Shown one piece after another: positions 1,699 to 36,984 of a stretch of 39,791 bases of DNA. A model generated the notes under the pieces. That model saw only the letters and a list, made by a program, of their open reading frames with translations. It did not search any database and was not told the DNA's origin. Each line of letters starts with the position of its first letter. Position 1 is the first letter of the stretch. The stretch is from Klebsiella phage VLCpiS11a: the sequence record NC_069154.1; one strand, given 5' to 3'. The position numbers and the translations under genes were made by a program.

Positions 1699-1880
1699 TC
1701 TGCACCACCTGTGATGCTATCGATGAAATCAATTAGCTCGCCGCGCGCGGCGGTAAGAGCGTTGTAGGCGGCCTTTTCCTGCTTCACACCTAGTATTTTG
1801 CCAGCGTGCCATTTGGTTAAAGCATCCGTTTCAGCCTCTATCAATTCTAATAGCTGCTCTGATTGTTCGCCGGTGATCAT
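1695..1880 (-). CDS. small hypothetical protein (61 aa, MITGEQSEQLLELIEAE...)
   Basis: Internal Met of ORF 1695-2015 is preceded by the perfect RBS AGGAGCAAACACA-ATG. The longer ORF would run through its own promoter elements. Confidence 0.5.
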   Translation of the reverse strand: MITGEQSEQLLELIEAETDALTKWHAGKILGVKQEKAAYNALTAARGELIDFIDSITGGAE

Positions 1881-2028: not shown

Positions 2029-2523
2029 CTACTTCACGGCCCTGCCAATAGCCTCGGCCTCGGCCGCCGATTTGCCGTCGAACAGCGCGAGTCGCCCGGT
2101 TGCGCGCCGGCGCAGTCCCAGCATCACCTTACCGCCCTGATAGATGAACTGCGGCAGCTTGGTGCGCAGCGTCGCAATATCCCCGCGGCGCAATGCCTGT
2201 CCGGTGCCCGTATCGGCGCCGATCACTTTCGGCCCGGCATTGAATACCAGGTCCACCATAGCGTCGAAGTATGGGCCGGTGACCAGAGGATGCGCCACCG
2301 CATCGACCTGGCGCTCGGCCTCCGCCATATCCTGGCGCAGTAACGCCAGTGCATCTGGTTCGGTGATGCTCGCCGGCGCCTGGGCGCGCGTACCTGTATG
2401 GCCGTAACCCCAGGTCAGGATCCCGCGCTCCTTCTCTTTGGCGGTCGCGTAATACGGCACAGGCTTAAACGTCTCCCAGCGCCGGGCGAATTCAACGGCG
2501 TTATCGCTGACTGTTCTTCGCAT
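2029..2523 (-). CDS. endolysin, GH24 phage lysozyme family
   Basis: GILTWGYGHTG aligns with the P22/lambda lysozyme GIPTIGVGHTG catalytic region. The 164-aa size and the position next to holin-like genes fit an endolysin. Confidence 0.75.
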   Translation of the reverse strand: MRRTVSDNAVEFARRWETFKPVPYYATAKEKERGILTWGYGHTGTRAQAPASITEPDALALLRQDMAEAERQVDAVAHPLVTGPYFDAMVDLVFNAGPKVIGADTGTGQALRRGDIATLRTKLPQFIYQGGKVMLGLRRRATGRLALFDGKSAAEAEAIGRAVK

Positions 2524-2785
2524 GGATCAATCTCCGATACTTGATATAGCGCACCGACTTAACGCAGGCGCTGCGCAGAAATGAAAGGGTGACCAGCACA
2601 AGGAGTGTTGACCAGATGAATAACGGCGCGCTGCCGTCTTTGTAGATATGGATCAGCCCGGCGCCGCAGGTGAGAAACAGTCCCATGAACACCAGGCGGC
2701 CCAGCAGGCCGTCGTCGACCCAGTGGGCGTAAATGTTAAACAGCGCGGTCATGGCGATAACGGAAAGGCAGAAGGCACTAAGCAT
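2501..2785 (-). CDS. holin-like membrane protein (94 aa, about 3 TM segments)
   Basis: Three hydrophobic segments and a basic C-terminus (KYRRLIHAKNSQR). Located between the other holin-like gene and the endolysin. Confidence 0.5.
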   Translation of the reverse strand: MLSAFCLSVIAMTALFNIYAHWVDDGLLGRLVFMGLFLTCGAGLIHIYKDGSAPLFIWSTLLVLVTLSFLRSACVKSVRYIKYRRLIHAKNSQR

Positions 2786-2787
2786 GG

Positions 2788-3066
2788 CTATTTACCCCAC
2801 GGTAGTTTAAAGCTGCTCGCCGCTACTTCCAGGGCCTCGAAGAATTTCCACCAGAAGGCGCCGATCACGAATGGCACCAGGTATTGCCCGTCGGTATCCG
2901 CCAGCTCGAAATAGCGGATCCCAAAAGGTGAGAAGTAAACGGCACAAGCGGCACCGGCGGCCAGGTGTGCGCAGCGCTTCCACAACGGTAGCTGCTCCGC
3001 TTTCTTAACCTGGGCCACGATGCCGCCGCATACGGCAGCGACGACAAGCCAGAAATATCTGTCCAT
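2788..3066 (-). CDS. holin/antiholin-like membrane protein (92 aa)
   Basis: Two or three hydrophobic segments. It is the first gene of the lysis block. The ATG at rc 3064-3066 follows the terminator directly; the ORF-track start is a TTG one codon upstream. Confidence 0.5.
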   Translation of the reverse strand: MDRYFWLVVAAVCGGIVAQVKKAEQLPLWKRCAHLAAGAACAVYFSPFGIRYFELADTDGQYLVPFVIGAFWWKFFEALEVAASSFKLPWGK

Positions 3067-3100
3067 CAAAAAGGACCCCCGAATGAATAGTATTCGGGGG
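3067..3100 (-). terminator. rho-independent terminator ending the early-left accessory operon
   Basis: CCCCCGAAT-GAATAGT-ATTCGGGGG stem-loop (3076-3100) followed on the minus strand by UCCUUUUUG. Confidence 0.55.
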
Positions 3101-4520: not shown

Positions 4521-4742
4521 GCAACCGCGTTGCCCAGGCGGCGCTTTGCGTGTCGGGCGCTCCTGGTAGTTGTTGCCGATTAAGTCGAAGTAATGCTCGA
4601 GATGCTTTGATACCCAATAAACCTGCCCTACTGGGGCGCGTCCTATTGTAGGCTTAGTCAGCCGCAGCACTCTTGGCCACTCTATGACGAGCACGGCGCT
4701 TCCGGTGAGTCTATGACGCAATATCTGGCCTTTCTTAAACAT
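4497..4742 (-). CDS. DUF2158-like small protein (MFKKGQILRHRLTGSAVLVIEW)
   Basis: The N-terminus resembles the YodC/DUF2158 pattern MxFKxGDxVxLKSGGPxMTV. This is from memory. Confidence 0.4.
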   Translation of the reverse strand: MFKKGQILRHRLTGSAVLVIEWPRVLRLTKPTIGRAPVGQVYWVSKHLEHYFDLIGNNYQERPTRKAPPGQRGCRKGDCGL

Positions 4743-4772
4743 GATATTTACTCCTGTCGTTTCGGTCCTCTT

Positions 4773-4801
4773 AGTATATGTCTAAACCAATGTTGGTTGC
4801 A
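4773..4801 (-). promoter_or_regulatory. putative promoter TTGCAA-17-TATACT (minus strand) for the 4742 operon, overlapping a TTGGTTGC motif
   Basis: -35 is rc of 4796-4801, -10 is rc of 4773-4778; the gene start lies 31 nt downstream. Confidence 0.45.
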
Positions 4802-5028
4802 ATACTGAATAGCAAAAATAAGGGCCGCGATAACTGGTATGGTAGTCAACTAGCCTACTTGCGTGCGTGGGGTGCTGAATTCGCTAGGACTAATCTTAAT
4901 ACCAATACCCACCATTCCCGACACTAAAACCTGCGTAACCAGCTGCCTGAATCACCGCAACCAACCAGAAAAATTATCCTGTCTCCTCGTACCGCATACT
5001 TGCTGCCGTTATATTTACATTCTGGCTA

Positions 5029-5057
5029 TTGCAAACTCGCAATTAAAATGATATGCT
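5029..5057 (+). promoter_or_regulatory. putative rightward promoter TTGCAA-17-TGaTATGCT inside the 555-bp non-coding region (candidate sRNA/antisense or origin transcript)
   Basis: -35 at 5029-5034, extended -10 at 5049-5057. An ACTCGCAA iteron lies in the spacer and structured GC-rich hairpins lie downstream (5078-5125). Confidence 0.35.
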
Positions 5058-5286
5058 CACTGCGTTCGCTTGGCAAAGCCCGCCAAGGCGACTTGCCTGC
5101 GACGCAAGAACGTGAGCATTTCAGGTTTTGCGAATAAAATCCCTCCCTAAATCAATCACTTACATACCGACTCGCAATCCATTTTTGCGAAAACCAACAA
5201 AAACACCCTAAGTTATTGAAAACGTTACTCGCAATTTCATTCGCAAAATTTTGCGAGTCTTGCGAGCCCATTCGCATTACTCGCAA
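5035..5286. repeat. iteron cluster 1: at least 9 copies of TCGCAA/ACTCGCAA in both orientations plus a 19/20-bp palindrome ATTCGCAAAATTTTGCGAGT (5239-5258)
   Basis: ACTCGCAA at 5035, 5170, 5227 and 5279. TTGCGA at 5129, 5185, 5251 and 5260. The cluster lies directly 3' of the primase-helicase gene. Confidence 0.6.
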
Positions 5287-5297
5287 CACGTATTATT

Positions 5298-7598
5298 TTA
5301 CGAGTTTAAGTCTTCATCACTTGCAACCAATTCCGGCGGGTCAAAGTCGTTTACGCCAGTCGGCAGCCTGTATTGTTGGTTGTAAACTTCGCCCGTATCC
5401 GGGTTGCGGCCATGCACTAAAACCCGTCGTCGCACTAACTCTTCCAGCACTTTTTTATAGTTGCCGCTGGTGAACTTGTTTCCGCCGGCGGTGCCGATCG
5501 CATAGGGTGAGTATCCCTCCGGGCGATCATCCAGCAGTTCGAGCTGGGCCACCATCACCTCTTCGGCCTTGTTCTTGGGCCCTGCGCCACCGGAGGCTTT
5601 CACCGCCTCCCGGGCTACTTCGGCAGCTGGCGATTCGAACGGGGTCAGGGCGACCGGTACCAGGTACAGCGTTTCGTCGCGCGGCGACATCTCCAGCGGT
5701 TTCGGCGTCCAGCCGGACAGCTGATCGGAAAAGTCCGGGCCCGCGGCGGTAGACAGATACGCGTCAACGCGGTCGGCGTGCGCCTGGGGGACGTCGATTT
5801 TACATTTCAGCAGGACGAAGCCACGCGGTGACTGTTTGATGCCGTTACGCGCTTTTTCGTGATAGAGGTTGATCTGGTGTGGCTTCGTCTCGTCCGGCTG
5901 CTCGATGAAAAAGGCGTAATCCACGGCGCCATGCAGCGCGCCGGAGCCGCGGGCGGTACGCTGGCCCGAGGATGACTTCGCCGGGTGGTGGATAACGCCG
6001 GCGCTGCCGCCAGTGGTCTCGGATATCTGTTTAAGCGCGCGGACAATTTCCCCCATATCGGTTGGGGAGTTTTCGTCGAACGGCTTTTTAGCGGTGCTGC
6101 GCATGGCGACGGTCTGGTTAAGCGAGTCGAAGGCCACCATGCCGACTGGCGAATCGCCGGCCGCGTCGCGGATGATTTTGCATACCTCTTTCACGCCACG
6201 CGCGTCGGTGATGTCGATGCCTTTATCCTGCAGGTCGATAATATGTAGCCAGTCCAGGTCGTCCTGGTACATCTTCTGCAGCGCCTGCTTACGGTGGAGG
6301 CTGGTTTCGCCGCCTTCCGCATCGAAATAAAAGTTGTGGGCGCGGACGACACGCCGTCCGCCGAACGGGATCCCGGCGGATATTGCCGCCATCTGGCCCA
6401 GGACGAAGAACGATTTACCGATGTTCGACTCGCCGGCGGCGTACCACGTCGATTTGAAGTTAACCAGGCCCTCAATGATGGGGTCACGCTTGGTGAACAG
6501 GGTAACCGGGTCGTCGTCCAGGTCCTCGTCGGTACACTGGCCGGCGGCGGGCCCGTCGAGCGCAGCCATCACCTCGGCCTCGTAGACGTGGGTGATCTCC
6601 TCTTCTGGCAAATCCGGCAGCAGTTCGGCGATCTGCTTTTTGCTGATATTATGCGCTTCGGGCAAATACTGGTCTGGCACGCCGCAAAGGCGCAGCATCA
6701 TGTGCTGGTGTGTGTTGTGCTTCCTGCAGTGGTCATGCTGGCACGCAAAGCGCACCTCGGGGTGAAGGGCGTCGGGCATCATGATCGCCGTGCTACCGTC
6801 GGTCCCGTCGTTGTCGCTGTGCTGGAAGTGGTTGGGGCATTGGATAGCGAAGCCACGACCAGAGGATAGCGGTTCGAGGCCCATCTCCCAGCACCACGCG
6901 GCGATTGCCTGGCTGTTCTCGCTGGCGTTCTCCAGCGCTTCGTCGGTCCAGTTGGTTGAGCCCGATTCGTCCGGCACGTCGAACCGGTGGCGCAGGACGC
7001 GGCGGACGCTGGCCGGCGCGCCGCGGTGGTCGACGGTTTCCGCTTCGATATGCGGGGCGAACATAAGGCGGGCGCGCTGGAATGCGGTTTCGTCCATCCC
7101 TTTCGCGCCGGTGAGCCCGAGCATATCGATGAATTTGTGCTGGCACGGCCAGATCTCATCCGCCAGCATCGGCCGGTCCGTTGGAATGATGAAACGCCAG
7201 GAGCGCGACTTAAAGCCGCCTTTCAGGTCGTGCCGGTCGCCGCAGGTGGAGTAGGCGAAGAACGTGTATCCGCCATCCTCCAGCGTGCGACGCACCCGGC
7301 GGATCTCTTTGCTGGATACTTTGTCGATATCGATAAACAGCAGGGACCGGGAAATGACGTTGTTGTTATTGCGCTTGTTGCGCTCAAACTCGGCGGCGAC
7401 ATACGGCAACCGGCCTTTCTTTTCTTCGTAACGATCTTCGGTCTCGCTGCCGTCAATGGATACCCCCAGCACGGGGTCGGCGCCGATCTCCAGCAGGTCG
7501 TCGATAAACTCATCCCAGGAGGATTCGAAAGCCTTCGGGCGATTGTCGGTTTTATGCCGGCCGAGAGAATAGGATATTTTTGATTTTAACCGTGGCAT
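5298..7598 (-). CDS. bifunctional primase-polymerase (AEP family) fused to a P-loop helicase
   Basis: Prim-pol DxD motif SLLFIDIDK. Cys/His zinc motif CPNHFQHS...CQHDHC. Walker A GESNIGKS and Walker B MVAFDSL. 766 aa. A GCAACCAA motif lies in its last codons. Confidence 0.85.
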   Translation of the reverse strand: MPRLKSKISYSLGRHKTDNRPKAFESSWDEFIDDLLEIGADPVLGVSIDGSETEDRYEEKKGRLPYVAAEFERNKRNNNNVISRSLLFIDIDKVSSKEIRRVRRTLEDGGYTFFAYSTCGDRHDLKGGFKSRSWRFIIPTDRPMLADEIWPCQHKFIDMLGLTGAKGMDETAFQRARLMFAPHIEAETVDHRGAPASVRRVLRHRFDVPDESGSTNWTDEALENASENSQAIAAWCWEMGLEPLSSGRGFAIQCPNHFQHSDNDGTDGSTAIMMPDALHPEVRFACQHDHCRKHNTHQHMMLRLCGVPDQYLPEAHNISKKQIAELLPDLPEEEITHVYEAEVMAALDGPAAGQCTDEDLDDDPVTLFTKRDPIIEGLVNFKSTWYAAGESNIGKSFFVLGQMAAISAGIPFGGRRVVRAHNFYFDAEGGETSLHRKQALQKMYQDDLDWLHIIDLQDKGIDITDARGVKEVCKIIRDAAGDSPVGMVAFDSLNQTVAMRSTAKKPFDENSPTDMGEIVRALKQISETTGGSAGVIHHPAKSSSGQRTARGSGALHGAVDYAFFIEQPDETKPHQINLYHEKARNGIKQSPRGFVLLKCKIDVPQAHADRVDAYLSTAAGPDFSDQLSGWTPKPLEMSPRDETLYLVPVALTPFESPAAEVAREAVKASGGAGPKNKAEEVMVAQLELLDDRPEGYSPYAIGTAGGNKFTSGNYKKVLEELVRRRVLVHGRNPDTGEVYNQQYRLPTGVNDFDPPELVASDEDLNS

Positions 7599-18516: not shown

Positions 18517-18997
18517 ATCCAACACCGCACCAGAGGATAAGGACTGCTGGCGAACGCCGCCGGAGATATTCGAACCGCTTAACGAGAGGTTTAATTTCCG
18601 CTATGACATGGCGGCAGCAGACCATAACGCCCTTTGCGCACGGTACTACACCGAACAGGATAGCGCCCTGGGTATCGAGTGGCCTGCGGCGTGGAAGTGG
18701 TGCAATCCGCCGTATTCTAAGCCGCTGCCGTGGTTCCAGCACGCCGCGCAGTACCGTAGAACGGTGTTACTCCTGCACCTGGCCGTTGCTACGCAGTGGA
18801 TGGATATAGCGCGCCGGGAGGCGAATACCATTATTCAGCTGACCGAGCGCATCCAGTTTATCCACGCCAGGACCGGCGAGCGCGCGGCGACGAAGAACAA
18901 CCGCGACTCGCAGATCATTATCTTCGGCCGGCGACCTAATCCCGACGGCGCGCGCATCGTCCAGTGCTCGATCGCGGATATCGCAAAATATCTGTAA
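18506..18997 (+). CDS. phage-type DNA N6-adenine methyltransferase (Dam-like, pfam05869 type)
   Basis: WRTPPEIFEPLNERFNFRYDMAA and the catalytic CNPPYS motif. Start at MADKSNT, which has a GTGAGG RBS. Confidence 0.8.
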   Translation: MADKSNTAPEDKDCWRTPPEIFEPLNERFNFRYDMAAADHNALCARYYTEQDSALGIEWPAAWKWCNPPYSKPLPWFQHAAQYRRTVLLLHLAVATQWMDIARREANTIIQLTERIQFIHARTGERAATKNNRDSQIIIFGRRPNPDGARIVQCSIADIAKYL

Positions 18998-19004
18998 ATG
19001 TTGG

Positions 19005-19033
19005 TTGCAATCTTAGTGGAGTCATATTATAGT
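19005..19033 (+). promoter_or_regulatory. strong sigma70-type promoter TTGCAA-17-TATAGT (copy A of the 42-bp twin promoter)
   Basis: AATGTTGGTTGCAATcttagTGGAGTCATATTATAGTTA. Copy B at 34809-34848 is near-identical. Confidence 0.6.
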
Positions 19034-19077
19034 TAATTCATAGGGCGGCGCGGTGCGGCCTTAAATAGGAGATTAAA

Positions 19078-19326
19078 ATGTTTGGATTCGGAGAGGCAGT
19101 AGCTCAATTAAATGCCGGGGTTAAAGTCGCCCGTAGCGGTTGGAACGGAAAAGGCATGTTTCTTTTCTTGGTCAGTGGTAATTCCTGGGACTTTACTACT
19201 GACGTTGAGGGTGTGGACGGCCTCGACACGCTGCCTTTTGTGTGTATGAAAACAGCGGACGGGAAATTGGTCCCCTGGCTGGCTAGCCAAACGGACATAA
19301 TCGCCACCGATTGGGTGGTTGTCTAA
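19078..19326 (+). CDS. DUF2829-like small protein (82 aa; family that includes Thoeris anti-defence Tad2)
   Basis: The N-terminus FGFGEAVAQLNAGVKVARSGWNGKGMF matches the F-x-E-A-x-x-x-L-K-x-G-x-K-V-A-R-x-G-W pattern I recall for DUF2829. TAGGAGAT RBS. Driven by the twin promoter. Confidence 0.4.
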   Translation: MFGFGEAVAQLNAGVKVARSGWNGKGMFLFLVSGNSWDFTTDVEGVDGLDTLPFVCMKTADGKLVPWLASQTDIIATDWVVV

Positions 19327-19368
19327 TATCACAGGCCCCTCGCGGGGCCACTTTCAGGAGCAAACACA

Positions 19369-19608
19369 ATGAAACGTATTACCGCAATCGCAATCACTCT
19401 GGCCGCCGTTCTGGGCTGCTCGTATGCTGGATCCGCCGCTGCCGCCACTCCGGTCGAAATGTGCCAGGAGCTGGCCGAAATGGGCGGGGTTATCGTCGAC
19501 GCCAGGAACCGTGGCGACTCGCTGGAAAACGTAACCAGCATTATCAACGGCAGCGATATGATCCCGAGCCTTAAAGCCGGTATGACGCGCATCGCTGAAA
19601 CGCGCTGA
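19369..19608 (+). CDS. exported protein (signal peptide; possible lipoprotein), candidate Cor-like superinfection-exclusion factor
   Basis: MKRITAIAITLAAVLGCSYAGSAAAA signal sequence. 79 aa. Lies next to the tail-fibre genes, as cor does in T1/phi80-type phages. The lipobox is non-canonical (VLGC). Confidence 0.45.
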   Translation: MKRITAIAITLAAVLGCSYAGSAAAATPVEMCQELAEMGGVIVDARNRGDSLENVTSIINGSDMIPSLKAGMTRIAETR

Positions 19609-28850: not shown

Positions 28851-28880
28851 GGTTGATTTGTTGGTTGCGATATGTTTATA
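28851..28880 (+). promoter_or_regulatory. possible promoter (TTGATT-18-TATATA) with a TTGGTTGC motif, for the opposite-strand moron gene
   Basis: Elements read by eye; spacing is marginal. Confidence 0.3.
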
Positions 28881-28911
28881 TACATGTAGAACTTTCAAAG
28901 AGGAATATACC

Positions 28912-29166
28912 ATGACGCAATTCATTATAGCAATTCTGGCGATGGGGCTAAACCTTGTCGTGCTGTTCTTCGTGGTGCGCTACGCTACGCGGTCAAGCGA
29001 ACAGGTCGAATTGTTGCGCCAGATTCTCGCGACGGCGAAACCGGAAGTAAAAAGCGAAATCGTCAAACTGACAGAAGAGAGGGCGAAACGTAGTCTTGCT
29101 CCGCAAAAGAGCCCGGTATGCATTCATGGGTGCCATATCCGTGGCGGACATATTCGAAATAACTAA
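28912..29166 (+). CDS. small membrane protein (84 aa, 1 TM) encoded antisense within the tail module (moron)
   Basis: MTQFIIAILAMGLNLVVLFFVV TM segment. GAGGAA RBS. A terminator follows directly. Confidence 0.45.
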   Translation: MTQFIIAILAMGLNLVVLFFVVRYATRSSEQVELLRQILATAKPEVKSEIVKLTEERAKRSLAPQKSPVCIHGCHIRGGHIRNN

Positions 29167-29190
29167 GGGGCCTAATGGCCCCTTTCTTTT
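29165..29190. terminator. rho-independent terminator (AAGGGGCC-TAAT-GGCCCCTT plus TCTTTT)
   Basis: Hairpin directly after the moron gene; it overlaps the stop of the major tail gene. Confidence 0.55.
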
Positions 29191-33026: not shown

Positions 33027-33049
33027 AAGGGGCCGAAGCCCCTTTTTAT
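33027..33049. terminator. terminator/attenuator hairpin immediately 3' of the major capsid gene
   Basis: AAGGGGC-CGAA-GCCCCTT with T-runs on both strands. Confidence 0.5.
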
Positions 33050-34017
33050 TACTCGTCAGCGTCGACGATCGCCAGCGTACCCAGGGTATGCTTGTTCTCG
33101 GCAACGGATTTATCCCAGTTGGACGCGGTCGCCAATTCGGCGTCGGTCGGAGACTTACCGCCGTTGGTCACATCCCAGGAATAGCCTTTCAGTTTCAGAC
33201 CGAAGGAGTAATCAGCCTGCCAGGTGGTTTCGATACGGGTTTTACCGTTCGAGGTTTCCATATTGGTGATGATGTCGCTGGTGTTGTCAACGACAATACC
33301 CTGTGCGACCACGGAAAGCACCTTCGCCTTGTTCGGCGTGCCGGCCTCATACAGCGCCGGGGAGTCGGTAACCACGTAACGCTTGCCGAGGATGTCGACC
33401 ACCAGCACATTGCTGGAGACAAACAGCTGGTTGGCGTTGGTGATCGCCTGGCCGATCAGCTTGTGATAGGTGGCACCGGTCATCACGTCGGTGATCAGGA
33501 GCTGCGACTGATCGCCGAATTTCGCATGGCTGTTGTTCAGCGCTCCGAGACTGATACCCGCCGTTGCGGATACGTCATTCACCAGCGCCGCCTGGCCGGA
33601 TACCGCAGCAACCGCTGCCGCAAGTGCAGTATTCAGCTGGTCCGCCAGCAGGGCGTCGGCGAAACCTTCGGAAATCGCCATGACGGCTTCGGTCGGGTTG
33701 CGCTGCAGCCAGGTCAGCTGGGACGGTTCGAATACAATCGGGCCAAAGCCGCCGGCAACTTTAACGCCTACGTTCTCGCCCTGGGTAAGGTTCGTGCCGG
33801 TCTGCGCGGCAATCGCTGCGTAACGGTCAACACGGCGCTGCGCTGCGGCGATCTGGTTGTAAAACGATTCTTTGGTGAAATCGCCTTCCCACGCCTGCGA
33901 GGACAGGACGATTGCGCCGCCGGAGTTGGCGTTGAACTGATCGGTTTTCTGACCCAGCAGTTCGATAGTCGCGCCGTAAATCTGGCGGTCGTAAACCTTC
34001 ATGTTCGAAAGAGACAT
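33049..34017 (-). CDS. major capsid protein
   Basis: 322 aa. AAGGG RBS. Follows the scaffold gene and is followed by a terminator. The translation in the antisense frame has no stops, as is typical of highly expressed capsid genes. Confidence 0.7.
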   Translation of the reverse strand: MSLSNMKVYDRQIYGATIELLGQKTDQFNANSGGAIVLSSQAWEGDFTKESFYNQIAAAQRRVDRYAAIAAQTGTNLTQGENVGVKVAGGFGPIVFEPSQLTWLQRNPTEAVMAISEGFADALLADQLNTALAAAVAAVSGQAALVNDVSATAGISLGALNNSHAKFGDQSQLLITDVMTGATYHKLIGQAITNANQLFVSSNVLVVDILGKRYVVTDSPALYEAGTPNKAKVLSVVAQGIVVDNTSDIITNMETSNGKTRIETTWQADYSFGLKLKGYSWDVTNGGKSPTDAELATASNWDKSVAENKHTLGTLAIVDADE

Positions 34018-34020
34018 ATC

Positions 34021-34712
34021 TTAACCCTTATTTTCTGCGTCGAGACGCTTACGGAGATCGGCCCGAGTTTTTTCGATGCCTGTTAGTTGCTCGCCACCGG
34101 CCCCGCCAGTAGGATTCCTGTTCCCGGCAGCCCCGCCGCCGTTCGCTGTGTCCGCCTGCATGAGGTGGGAGATCACCTTATGCTTTTTACAGAAGTCGAT
34201 AAACTTATCGACGTCCGTCGTAATAACTGCGCCGTCCGGACCGACAAACTTCGTCACCAGGTCATCGCCGTCAAACTCGACTTTGATAAATGGGGCGATC
34301 AGGTCTGCGGCGTCTGCATCAATAAATTTGCCCTTGGCAATTACCGAGCCCATAACGGCTTTACGTTCGCTGCCGAGGATGCGCTCGGCCAGCTTGGTGA
34401 TCTTACCGTCTTTCTCGGCGATCACCGGGTCGTACTGACCACGAATCGACTTTTCGAATTCTTCCATCTGGCCGGATTGCTTCGCCGCTTCCTGCTGTAT
34501 GCGTACGCGTTCTGCTTCGGCTTCGCGGGCCTTCTGGGCCGCTTTCTTCTTCTCGTCCAGTAAAGCAGTGTTCTGGTTTTTAAGACCATTCACCATTTCA
34601 TCGACTTCGGCCTGGGTGTAGGTTTTAGGTGGTTCATCACCGCCTCCGCCTTGATGCTCTTCACCGGCTTCGGACTGATACGAGTAAAGGAAAGACTGTA
34701 AAAAACGATTCA
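34021..34712 (-). CDS. scaffolding protein
   Basis: Start at MNRFLQ (AGGGG RBS). Charged coiled-coil composition (EAEAERVRIQQEAAKQ). Lies upstream of the capsid gene. Confidence 0.5.
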
Positions 34713-34815
34713 TAGTGCGTAGACCCCTGGTCTTCATGAATCCGGGCCACCCGGATTTACATACGCTAAATATACAGCGCGCTGCAAGTATTAACAATAT
34801 ACGTGCAAATGTTGG

Positions 34816-34844
34816 TTGCAATATGAATGGAGTCATATTATAGT
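34816..34844 (+). promoter_or_regulatory. strong sigma70-type promoter TTGCAA-17-TATAGT (copy B of the twin promoter)
   Basis: AATGTTGGTTGCAATatgaaTGGAGTCATATTATAGTTA; 39 of 42 positions match the copy at 18997-19038. Confidence 0.6.
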
Positions 34845-34874
34845 TAGGTAACCAACAACAAGAGGATCGAAATT

Positions 34875-35027
34875 ATGTATATCAGAACTAAATATCGGAA
34901 TTCTGGAAAGGTAGACTTGCGTCGACTACGTCGGTGCGCCCGCAGACTGTCCGCGGCATATCGCGTCCTTGGCTTAGGTAAAACTGAAAAATGGATTCGG
35001 AAAGCGGCCAGGAGATTTGGTAAATGA
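34875..35027 (+). CDS. very basic 50-aa protein (MYIRTKYRNSGKVDLRRLRRCARRLSAAYRVLGLGKTEKWIRKAARRFGK)
   Basis: AAGAGGAT RBS 8 nt upstream. Lies downstream of the twin promoter. Below the ORF-track cutoff. Confidence 0.35.
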   Translation: MYIRTKYRNSGKVDLRRLRRCARRLSAAYRVLGLGKTEKWIRKAARRFGK

Positions 35028-35164
35028 AACCAATGGCAAAGCGTAACCCAACGAAACACCAGCAACGTCGCCGGGTTTTCCTGGTGTATCTACCTGCAGC
35101 ATGGGCGGCTATCGCCTTAGTCTGCTGGGGCCTTGCCTGGCTCATAAAAAACGCCCCGCTATAG
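35024..35164 (+). CDS. 46-aa membrane peptide (MKPMAKRNPTKHQQRRRVFLVYLPAAWAAIALVCWGLAWLIKNAPL)
   Basis: ATGA overlap with the preceding ORF. One TM segment. Ends inside the terminator hairpin. Confidence 0.35.
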   Translation: MKPMAKRNPTKHQQRRRVFLVYLPAAWAAIALVCWGLAWLIKNAPL

Positions 35165-35172
35165 GGGCGTTG
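35143..35172. terminator. rho-independent terminator shared by the convergent moron cassette and the Rz/Rz1 genes
   Basis: ACGCCCC-GCTATA-GGGGCGT. The minus-strand U-tract is strong (UUUUUUAU) and the plus-strand U-tract is weak. Confidence 0.55.
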
Positions 35173-35407
35173 TCACATTCTTAACCCAGTCCTGCAGCTG
35201 GTACACCTGCAACCGCAACCGCCGGCCACAATCCATATTCTGCACATCCGCGTTTAGATCCGCGTCACTGTCCTTTTCCGCTGCCTGAAACTGGCACGGC
35301 TTCGTCATCATAGCCGGGGATGGCGTTGGCATTGTCGATAGCACGCTGTTTGAGTTGCACCCGGTCATCGTCAAAATTACAGCGAACGCGATCAAGATTC
35401 TGCACAT
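35159..35407 (-). CDS. o-spanin (Rz1-like lipoprotein) in the +1 frame, overlapping the end of Rz
   Basis: MCRILIAFAVILTMTGC signal with a Cys, then Pro-rich PTPSP. Strong internal RBS AAGAGGTGG. The lipobox is non-canonical. Confidence 0.5.
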   Translation of the reverse strand: MCRILIAFAVILTMTGCNSNSVLSTMPTPSPAMMTKPCQFQAAEKDSDADLNADVQNMDCGRRLRLQVYQLQDWVKNVTTPL

Positions 35408-35651
35408 ATTTAACCACCTCTTTCGTTATCACAACGGTTTTTGCCGCTCCGGCCCGATCGGCTTCTACGGCCTTCTTGTCGTTAACCTGCTGCGCGGCCA
35501 CTCGTTTAGCGAGCGCCGATCTCGCTTTCTCTTCCTGCTGGCTAACCAGTTTCGCGCGGCCGTCGTTCCAGCCGTTATGGTATTGCCATTTACCGAAACC
35601 AACAAGGGTAAGGATAACCGCTACCGCAACCAAGATATAAACTTTCCACAT
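35265..35651 (-). CDS. i-spanin (Rz-like)
   Basis: N-terminal TM VYILVAVAVILTLVGFG followed by a charged coiled-coil periplasmic domain. AAAGGTGG RBS. 128 aa. Confidence 0.6.
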   Translation of the reverse strand: MWKVYILVAVAVILTLVGFGKWQYHNGWNDGRAKLVSQQEEKARSALAKRVAAQQVNDKKAVEADRAGAAKTVVITKEVVKYVQNLDRVRCNFDDDRVQLKQRAIDNANAIPGYDDEAVPVSGSGKGQ

Positions 35652-35934: not shown

Positions 35935-36984
35935 TTACGAGTTCCCGGACAAGAATTTGGCTACGCGTTTATCGTTGTCCGCCATCTCGCGCAGGGTCAA
36001 CGGGCGCCCGAAACCGTCAACCGAAGCCGCCCGGAATTCCTCCGCCGTCATGCCGCTATTGCGGAAGATATTACCGCGCACTGGTCCGAGTGCCTCATCC
36101 TGGAACCATGCCGGCTGCATACGGAGGAACTCATAATATGACGTGTCCGCATCAACCTGGGTCCCTCCGTCAGCGCCGCGCGCCGCACGTTTAGCGCCTG
36201 CGTCCAGGAAGTCAAATGATTTGTCGATCACTGGTGCGGTTGTCGTCCGGCAGTTCGGATGCAACGGCGGCAGCGGCCCCTTACCGATGTCGTACACCTT
36301 ACCGTGCGGCAGGTTTCGACAGATAGACGACGTCCGCTTGTCCAGGGTCACCACCAGCTCGTAGCCCTCCACAATATCGTCGTTTTTCTGGTAGGTTAAA
36401 TTCTTCGCCTCGGTCGACACGTGATTCATCGCCGTGCGCACCACCGTTGCCGCATTGCGGTTTGACACGTCGGCCAGCCCGCCCGGGCCGACTACCTGGC
36501 GCACGATATCGCGCGTCGACATGCCCTGCACAAAGCCCGATTTAACGCCGGTGACCAGACGATTAATTTCCGTGTCCTGCCAGCTGGTCAACATGTCCTG
36601 GAAGTCTACCGGTTTACCTTCCAGCTGCAGCGGGTTGAATTTAATGGCCGACCAGACTTGATCCGGCGCTGGTGTGGTGAAATTGGCGTTGACGAATTCA
36701 CCCATCGTGTTCGCTGACCAGGCGGCTTCGTATTCGGCAATAGCCCTGAGGTCCGCTATAAGGCGGCCCTCCCATTTTCCGGAGGTGCCATACAAAATAT
36801 CCTCCATGTCTTTTAACATCTTCTCCAGTCGCGCGCGGGTGCGGCTCTCGTCCCCGAAAGCCAGCACCTTTTGCTTTACCTCATCGCGCATCTGCTGGAT
36901 GAACGGCTCCAGCTCGTTCACCTCATGCGAGGCGTTGCGCTGGAGCCAGATCTGGTGGCTAATGAATGCGGTTAAGAGGCTCAT
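35935..36984 (-). CDS. head morphogenesis protein (SPP1 gp7 / Mu F-like)
   Basis: 349 aa and directly downstream of the portal gene with an overlap. Assignment by gene order. Confidence 0.55.
   Translation of the reverse strand: MSLLTAFISHQIWLQRNASHEVNELEPFIQQMRDEVKQKVLAFGDESRTRARLEKMLKDMEDILYGTSGKWEGRLIADLRAIAEYEAAWSANTMGEFVNANFTTPAPDQVWSAIKFNPLQLEGKPVDFQDMLTSWQDTEINRLVTGVKSGFVQGMSTRDIVRQVVGPGGLADVSNRNAATVVRTAMNHVSTEAKNLTYQKNDDIVEGYELVVTLDKRTSSICRNLPHGKVYDIGKGPLPPLHPNCRTTTAPVIDKSFDFLDAGAKRAARGADGGTQVDADTSYYEFLRMQPAWFQDEALGPVRGNIFRNSGMTAEEFRAASVDGFGRPLTLREMADNDKRVAKFLSGNS

Follow-up and report, generated by a model that had tools for sequence, protein, structure and literature searches.

Phage genomes carry accessory regions, hotspots of variable accessory and anti-defense genes that lie between conserved genes (Silas et al., bioRxiv 10.1101/2023.04.06.535777), and lambdoid phages carry morons, of which gene 15 of HK97 is an example (PMC3594210). 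Here we describe a locus that invites comparison with both, in a stretch of 39,791 nucleotides (nt) from Klebsiella phage VLCpiS11a (NC_069154.1), the whole of which is referred to below as the window. At this locus (34,713 to 35,172) two small open reading frames (ORFs), ORF1 for a basic protein of 50 amino acids (aa) and ORF2 for a 46-aa membrane peptide, follow a predicted promoter on the plus strand. We favor the interpretation that the locus is a promoter-driven slot for accessory genes, moron-like in character, inserted between the spanin and scaffold genes, and we consider this probable.

A slot between the spanin and scaffold genes

By sequence the window is a Guernseyvirinae-like Klebsiella siphophage: the best match to the locus was Klebsiella phage 37P2 (ON107243.1, Guernseyvirinae, 39.1 kb), its nearest relative, with 82.9% nucleotide identity over 92% of a 2-kb query, and Kagunavirus phages were more distant nucleotide matches to the region. 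The annotation of 37P2 includes no integrase, and its subfamily is described as virulent. More than 20 related loci were gathered by scanning IMG/VR with the first 16 nt of the promoter, by tracing proteins to their contigs, and by a metagenome scan, and some of these loci are one genome recovered from different collections. Their order was constant, consisting of the scaffold gene, a divergent promoter region, the plus-strand promoter, variable cargo, ORF2, a hairpin, and Rz1 (Table 1). The promoter thus lies between the Rz/Rz1 and scaffold genes; an earlier interpretation made from the letters of this DNA (hereafter the sequence-only reading) had placed it between the head-morphogenesis and scaffold genes, and the former proved to be one gene further away.

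Nine cargo states were found between the promoter and ORF2 (locus labels in brackets). There was no cargo in L004–L006, in which the promoter and a strong TAAGGAGG site would drive ORF2 directly, and ORF1 was the cargo in the window, in 37P2, and in L007/L008 and L056/L071. The other states were a 75-aa gene (phrog_1585; L013, L072), the same 75-aa gene together with ORF1 (L044/L070), an 83-aa gene (phrog_11449; L028), an 88-aa gene (L040), a 71-aa gene (L073), a 65-aa gene (L074), and a 283-aa PAPS-reductase-like gene (phrog_424; L023). When the cassette was sought at the same locus in relatives, as the sequence-only reading had proposed, the promoter and ORF2 were found in all of them, while ORF1 was absent, replaced, or situated beside unrelated genes in most; ORF2 without ORF1 was seen in L004, L013, L023, L028, L040, L073, and L074. 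This comparison makes ORF2 the constant gene, with ORF1 as one of several exchangeable cargo genes.

These patterns bear on how the two ORFs are related, since the sequence-only reading had joined the basic protein and the membrane peptide in one module. The content between the promoter and ORF2 is variable while ORF2 is fixed, and ORF1 plus ORF2 is therefore not a module; ORF2 occurs without ORF1, and in Drulisvirus podophages, described below, ORF1 occurs without ORF2. In its fuller form, that of a two-component toxin-like, exclusion, or lysis-timing module whose read-through RNA, antisense to Rz1 and Rz, tunes the spanins, the proposal seems to us quite unlikely. It would fit the ATGA overlap that couples both ORFs in the window phage and four relatives, the convergence of the unit with Rz1, which ORF2 overlaps by 6 nt, and the poor U-tract that follows the hairpin in the plus direction. 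But in L004 nothing accompanies ORF2, and elsewhere seven other, unrelated combinations of cargo precede it; a canonical lysis cassette of two holin-like genes and a lysozyme lies elsewhere in the window (2029–3069), and Kagunavirus has the same spanins in the same place without the cassette. Nor did ORF1 or ORF2 match any profile of the holin, antiholin, spanin, Sie, toxin, exclusion, or defense families, and the toxin-like, exclusion, or lysis assignment found no similarity to draw on.

Kagunavirus also indicates how the slot arose. In phage NTEC3 the Rz1 stop codon is ~80 nt from the scaffold start, an interval occupied by nothing but the conserved hairpin from the 5' untranslated region (UTR) of the scaffold mRNA; in RP180, too, the annotated distance from scaffold to spanin gene is 191 nt, as in NTEC3, and there is likewise no cassette. 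Because the Kagunavirus gap lacks the cassette, the unit of promoter, ORF2, and terminator is, on these alignments, an insertion specific to the 37P2-like clade. An integron-like cassette array was considered and rejected, as no integrase is annotated, no attC site was present, and all that the junctions have in common is a short GAAACCAA string and ribosome-binding sites.

Table 1. Features of the slot, its flanks, and the sister cassette, with positions in the window.
Feature	Position	Strand	Description
Promoter block heading ORF1/ORF2 (predicted)	34807-34846	+	-35 TTGCAA 34816-34821, 17-nt spacer, -10 TATAGT 34839-34844
Shine-Dalgarno AAGAGGAT for ORF1	34860-34867	+	relatives have equivalent sites
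ORF1	34875-35027	+	50 aa, Arg/Lys-rich; the variable cargo in the window
AGGAG within ORF1 3' end	35010-35014	+	9 nt before the ORF2 start codon
ORF2	35024-35164	+	46 aa, single-pass membrane peptide; constant gene of the slot
Hairpin common to ORF2 and Rz1	35150-35171	both	8 bp (6 G-C), 6-nt loop
Rz1-type o-spanin gene	35159-35407	-	convergent with ORF2; phrog_5672, E 1.1e-19
Rz-type i-spanin gene	35265-35651	-	phrog_2536, E 3.4e-44
Head morphogenesis gene	35935-36984	-	profile search
Candidate divergent promoter	34769-34797	-	TTGTTA-N17-TATATT, for scaffold and capsid genes; from scan; region conserved in relatives
Double hairpin, scaffold mRNA 5' UTR	34714-34770	-	conserved in relatives
Head scaffolding protein gene	34021-34713	-	left conserved flank of the slot; phrog_206, E 4.7e-34
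Major capsid gene	33049-34017	-	profile search
Second promoter copy (predicted)	18996-19035	+	40-nt pattern; heads the Tad2-like cassette
Tad2-like gene	19078-19326	+	PF11195, E 1.1e-24
Lipoprotein-like gene	19369-19608	+	conserved; begins MKRITAIAITLAAVLGC...

ORF1 and ORF2 as conserved genes

ORF1 encodes 18 lysine and arginine residues against 2 aspartate and glutamate residues, with an isoelectric point of 11.9. The last base of AAGAGGAT is 7 nt from the ATG at 34875 (9 nt when counted from the GAGG core), and the stop codon of ORF1 overlaps the start codon of ORF2 in the string ATGA at 35024–35027; the AGGAG ahead of it would be a putative ribosome-binding site for the downstream gene. 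ORF2 consists of a 17-residue basic N-terminal tail followed by a predicted transmembrane helix, and ends 5 residues past the helix. Its Kyte-Doolittle hydropathy peaks at 1.98 over 19 residues, and AlphaFold2 modeled a single helix from residue 9 to 43 (predicted local distance difference test score, pLDDT, 80.6). A Shine-Dalgarno-like site was found 8–10 nt 5' of the ORF2 ATG in every variant. The sequence-only reading had described the pair in these same terms, as an Arg/Lys-rich 50-aa ORF with a ribosome-binding site, joined by ATGA to a 46-aa ORF with one transmembrane segment, and each part of that description held up.

Both reading frames are intact between 37P2 and the window, without insertions or deletions, at ~19% divergence. 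Across loci, pairwise ratios of nonsynonymous to synonymous substitution (dN/dS) were 0.12–0.29 for ORF1, with synonymous sites near saturation, and 0.05–0.2 for ORF2, and residues T5, K6, Y7, R8, S10, G11, and L15–L25 (LRRLRRCARRL) were invariant in all ORF1 homologs. Conservation as ORFs in relatives had been named beforehand as the check that might overturn the two genes, and in relatives both frames are kept with low dN/dS. Judged by these comparisons, ORF1 and ORF2 are real, conserved genes under purifying selection. We give next to no credence to the idea that the DNA between the two late transcription units is non-coding filler in which both frames are open by chance: the frames are short, mostly unannotated (ORF1 is unannotated in the records of both 37P2 and KpV74, a Drulisvirus phage), and belong to no database family, but purifying selection is strong with synonymous change saturated, ORF length and frame are kept across two phage families, ribosome-binding sites are conserved, and alternative frames are broken. 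The comparative data refute this idea as far as sequences can. A conserved ORF on the opposite strand was also considered and rejected, as the 85-aa and 73-aa minus frames are broken by stops in relatives, and an Rfam scan of 34500–35400 returned sub-threshold snoRNA noise only.

Relatives of both proteins were few. A collection of 5.8 billion proteins contained 8 relatives of ORF1 and 9 of ORF2; an exhaustive profile search with HMMER, over 1.84 billion representatives, recovered only ORF1's own cluster, and the ORF2 profile search gave matches within the same clade only. ORF1 patterns found no relative in 185,579 species genomes, and ORF1 is therefore no prophage or bacterial gene among them; tblastn of ORF2 against plasmids gave one chance match. 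In IMG/VR, ORF1 was confined to two phage contexts, the siphophage slot and Drulisvirus. A literature search on the ORF1 motif gave no match, and a paper on the Klebsiella phage KlebP_265 was unrelated.

The second of these contexts was recovered by tblastn, which found full-length ORF1, with 70–72% aa identity and without ORF2, in 11 Drulisvirus (Autographiviridae) Klebsiella podophages, out of ~250 records that match the Drulisvirus locus and are mostly Drulisvirus-type Klebsiella podophages. ORF1 of KpV74 (L002, 2501–2650) lies between gp17 and the DNA polymerase gene, with its ATG overlapping the gp17 stop codon (ATGA) and its stop codon overlapping the polymerase start (GTGA). Many of the locus-spanning records align in two pieces that cover 84% of the query, which fits the absence of the ORF1 segment alone; phage SU552A (L075) is shorter by 146 nt, and KpV74 differs from it by a seamless 147-nt insertion at the ATGA overlap. 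Other Drulisvirus records have a different insert there, in some an HNH endonuclease gene. The site between gp17 and polymerase is itself a variable slot, which can be empty or hold ORF1 or another insert. That ORF1 is a decayed fragment of such an HNH endonuclease was considered and rejected, since purifying selection acts on it in both lineages.

Between the window and KpV74, ORF1 has 63% nucleotide identity, and the proportions of synonymous and nonsynonymous differences (pS and pN) are 0.88 and 0.21; in its conserved block, codons 5–25, 14 codons differ synonymously and 2 nonsynonymously. It is therefore the protein that is selected and not the DNA. The C-terminal codons of ORF1 (AGG AGA TTY ...AAR TGA) are conserved in both phage families, and in both the 3' codons appear to supply a predicted ribosome-binding site and a coupled start for the following gene. 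The distribution of ORF1 shows that it is horizontally mobile, and its absence from relatives suggests that it is non-essential. A role in the phage's own nucleic-acid metabolism, as a small DNA- or RNA-binding accessory to replication or transcription, has some appeal for a protein that is extremely basic, predicted to form a helical hairpin, and in Drulisvirus coupled in translation to a replication-module gene on one side and to the DNA polymerase gene on the other. We nevertheless think this unlikely, in view of the absence of ORF1 from ~95% of Drulisvirus-type records at the locus and from most siphophage relatives, and of its position in siphophages in an accessory slot far from replication genes.

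In the most divergent version of ORF2 (P0017, 42 aa) the N-terminal MKPMAKRNPTKY..RRR is retained, followed by a hydrophobic helix with a different sequence. Among further variants (P0009, with L074 at 2501–2656, P0013, and P0014), some carry an internal 8-residue duplication, giving 54 aa, and others have lost the stop codon in the hairpin loop and run to 64–78 aa. Residues R15–R17 are invariant and are followed by V/I-F-L or W-L-I, so that every variant has RRRVFL, RRRIFL, or RRRWLI, and the Rieske Tat signal family of Pfam was a weak hit (PF10399, E 0.067). Such features could mark ORF2 as a bare look-alike of a twin-arginine (Tat) signal peptide that uses or blocks the host TatBC receptor, a proposal that we regard as very unlikely. 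At 13.1 bits the PF10399 match falls short of the cut-off of 24. ORF2 lacks both an AxA cleavage site and a passenger domain, its extended and strongly hydrophobic segment is closer to a Sec/YidC anchor, and arginines beside a transmembrane helix are expected from the positive-inside rule anyway.

Promoter duplication, shared hairpin, and sister cassettes

The promoter heading the slot is a 40-nt block with 35 fixed positions, AAATGTTGGTTGCAAT-N5-TGGAGTCATATTATAGTTA, that occurs at exactly two sites in the window (Table 1) and gave 0 matches in 100 shuffles. The hexamer pair TTGCAA-N17-TATAGT, which was flagged by the promoter scan as well, occurs at the same two sites only (0.07 expected), and we predict that the element is a sigma-70-like promoter. 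The duplication spans ~55 nt, beginning in A/T-rich sequence 5' of the -35 and reaching the first transcript bases, and the block was kept at both genome positions in every relative examined. A near-exact copy had been reported in the sequence-only reading with identity at 39 of 42 positions; the duplicate is confirmed and the figure is corrected, the best 42-nt window being 38/42 identical and the best 40-nt window 37/40. In all relatives examined the same promoter heads the Tad2-like cassette, as that reading had it, and co-regulation of the near-identical copies is plausible. Inside the block, at 34810–34822, is the phage-wide motif TGTTGGTTGCAAT. The core motif, TGTTGGTTGCRAT, was observed at 5 sites in the window, 1922–1934 on the minus strand, 4791–4803, 18999–19011, 28859–28871, and 34810–34822, where 0.08 were expected.

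At the other end of the slot, ORF2 and Rz1 meet in a hairpin whose loop, CTATAG, contains both of the convergent stop codons (TAG of ORF2 at 35162–35164, and TAG of Rz1, read as CTA on the plus strand, at 35159–35161), and whose stem arms encode the last codons of both genes (...NAPL and ...TTPL, respectively). The stem is invariant among relatives. The codons for the final ORF2 residues, IKNAPL, coincide with the stem and U-tract of the Rz1 terminator, the U-tract being the antisense of the I-K-N codons, and the invariance of IKNAPL can be attributed to this overlap. The terminator scan flagged the hairpin on the minus strand only, where UUUUUU comes next; the plus-strand sequence that comes after it is GUUGUCACAUUCUU, a poor U-tract, in agreement with the earlier view that the hairpin is a strong terminator for the Rz/Rz1 strand and a weak one for the cassette. 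Given this U-tract, read-through antisense to the spanins is possible.

The constancy of ORF2 in the clade, its place directly beside Rz1 throughout, with one terminator in common, and its predicted form, a small transmembrane peptide with its N-terminus inside and a charged cytoplasmic tail, would suit a lysis-related membrane factor, either antiholin-like or spanin-modulating, that is kept next to Rz1 for that reason. This strikes us as improbable. ORF2 lies on the strand opposite to all lysis genes and has the same promoter as the Tad2-like accessory gene, the spanins work without it in Kagunavirus, it has no homology to known lysis regulators, and insertion at a transcription-unit boundary explains the adjacency equally well.

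The second promoter copy heads a sister cassette, 3' of the Dam methylase gene, that has a similar design, with variable cargo followed by a conserved lipoprotein-like gene. The cargo is the Tad2-like gene in the window, and 53–74 aa genes or none in relatives. The lipoprotein-like gene encodes 79 aa in the window as opposed to 105–106 aa in most relatives, and its sequence diverges after ...MTRIA, which suggests that the window gene is frameshifted or truncated; in L034 it is split. A third plus-strand cassette (28859–29190) was observed within the tail module, consisting of a degenerate promoter motif, TGTTGGTTGCGAT, a gene, and a hairpin, AAGGGGCCTAATGGCCCCTT, and in this arrangement it resembles the HK97 gene 15 moron. 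The gene (28912–29166) encodes an 84-aa membrane protein that is YebO-like (PF13974, E 6.9e-6, 26.6 bits against a cut-off of 27), and its counterpart in 37P2 is annotated as a superinfection immunity protein. A ribosome-binding site plus spacer, caggagcaaacacaATG, is found both 5' of the lipoprotein-like gene (19353–19371) and 5' of the gene downstream of the 1922 minus-strand motif (~1860–1880, minus strand), which suggests shuffling of expression modules.

Other observations concern the flanks and the wider genome. The scaffold 5' UTR hairpins, AGACC...GGTCT and AATCCGGG...CCCGGATT, were kept in all relatives, the larger hairpin of this leader was found in Kagunavirus NTEC3 too, and the double hairpin may be an mRNA-stabilizing or regulatory leader. 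The head-morphogenesis gene of one relative (L008, 1130–2992) contains an intein (PF14890) and encodes 620 aa. The ~550 nt of non-coding DNA that precede the helicase gene (4742–5298) contain many TCGCAA/TTGCGA repeats, resembling an iteron or operator array.

Proposed roles and comparison with known systems

In the mechanism that we propose, host RNA polymerase would transcribe the unit on the strand opposite to the late genes. The fixed promoter is followed by no gene, one gene, or two unrelated small genes, then by ORF2 and the shared hairpin. Where ORF1 is the cargo, its AGGAG and the overlapping stop and start codons would keep the downstream gene translated. ORF1 would reside in the cytoplasm and bind nucleic acid or an acidic host protein; it is probably a counter-defense or host-takeover factor, because it shares variable slots with Tad2-like, PAPS-reductase-like, and other accessory genes. 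ORF2 would be an inner-membrane factor, its invariant basic tail at the N-terminus facing the cytoplasm, and would act on the envelope, most likely in superinfection exclusion or in modulating a membrane protein complex. In this it would parallel the lipoprotein-like protein of the sister cassette and the YebO-like protein of the third. A more specific version, which we hold to be doubtful and raise tentatively, is that ORF1 is a plug-and-play mini-gene from a new family of basic counter-defense or takeover inhibitors, and that ORF2, with its invariant twin-arginine tail, is directed at a machine of the inner membrane, for instance the Tat translocase. As such a mini-gene, ORF1 would move between unrelated siphophages and podophages of Klebsiella by inserting where the next gene starts (in Drulisvirus precisely at the stop/start overlap), and would bring with it a ribosome-binding site and coupled start for that gene.

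Several points weigh against the slot interpretation and the roles attached to it. We infer the functions of both proteins, and what links ORF1 to counter-defense is association only. Neither ORF1 nor ORF2 matched a family in Pfam, PHROG, NCBIfam, PADLOC, or PDB. The AlphaFold2 model of ORF1 is a helical hairpin (helices at residues 15–31 and 37–49) of low confidence (pLDDT 65); a sequence search of PDB with ORF1 gave only chance S16 matches (E>1), and a Foldseek search with the model gave no match. The coupling of ORF1 to replication genes in Drulisvirus could indicate a role in the DNA metabolism of the phage itself. The activity and timing of the promoter are predictions from consensus, and a good -10 hexamer stands 17 nt from the TGTTGGTTGCRAT motif at only two of its sites; because the other three of the five lack one, the motif may be a site for a phage regulator, instead of or besides being a -35 element.

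The locus is relevant to the choice and engineering of therapeutic Klebsiella phages. The ORF1 family is common to unrelated Klebsiella phages, the siphophage and the Drulisvirus podophages, both of which are used in phage-therapy work, and the slot provides a list of candidates for counter-defense and takeover screens that includes ORF1, the 65-, 71-, 75-, 83-, and 88-aa cargo genes, and the cargo of the sister slot. In cocktails, exclusion between co-infecting phages may be governed by ORF2 and the sister lipoprotein-like gene, which encode conserved predicted envelope proteins.

Compared with phage accessory regions, the slot in the window has conserved flanks, with the scaffold gene and promoter on one side and ORF2 and the spanin on the other, and a content that varies among close genomes. 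Its cargo is small, of no assigned role, and horizontally exchanged, and a known anti-defense fold (Tad2-like) occupies the sister slot. Unlike accessory regions in general, it is bounded precisely, by a fixed promoter and 5' UTR and by the ORF2 start codon, and the design appears twice in one genome behind a duplicated promoter. The counter-defense role associated with accessory regions is approached here through the company the cargo keeps, Tad2-like in the sister slot and PAPS-reductase-like in L023.

The unit also resembles the morons of lambdoid phages, being extra DNA between genes that are adjacent in relatives, in the late structural region, and like the HK97 moron it has its own predicted promoter, a terminal hairpin, and a gene for a small predicted inner-membrane protein. 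It differs in that it runs opposite to the late genes and borrows its terminator, weak-looking in the plus direction, from Rz1. HK97 gp15 is expressed from the prophage, whereas the window phage belongs to a family without an integrase that is regarded as virulent. Similarity to gp15 and YebO is found in the protein encoded at 28912–29166 and not in ORF2. Morons can differ from neighboring genes in base composition; guanine plus cytosine content is 47.7% in ORF1, lower than the 55.5% of the genome, but 54.6% in ORF2.

MgrB, AcrZ, Hok, and TisB are small single-pass membrane regulators or type I toxins of enterobacteria, and ORF2 is like them in architecture only, in its size (42–46 aa), its one transmembrane helix, and its near lack of a periplasmic part; its 17-residue invariant polybasic cytoplasmic tail sets it apart, there is no sequence similarity, and ORF2 is not known to be toxic or to have an antisense RNA. 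The N-terminus of lambda N is an arginine-rich motif peptide, and the helical arginine-rich stretch of ORF1 is reminiscent of it, as a lead and not as membership: ORF1 is a complete 50-aa protein, has no sequence homology to N, and is found as well in phages with an RNA polymerase of their own. It is well supported by these sequence comparisons that the locus is a new example of a known phenomenon, the accessory slot, and leaves current ideas standing; what distinguishes it are its precise bounds, its two copies behind a duplicated promoter, and its two uncharacterized families of small proteins.

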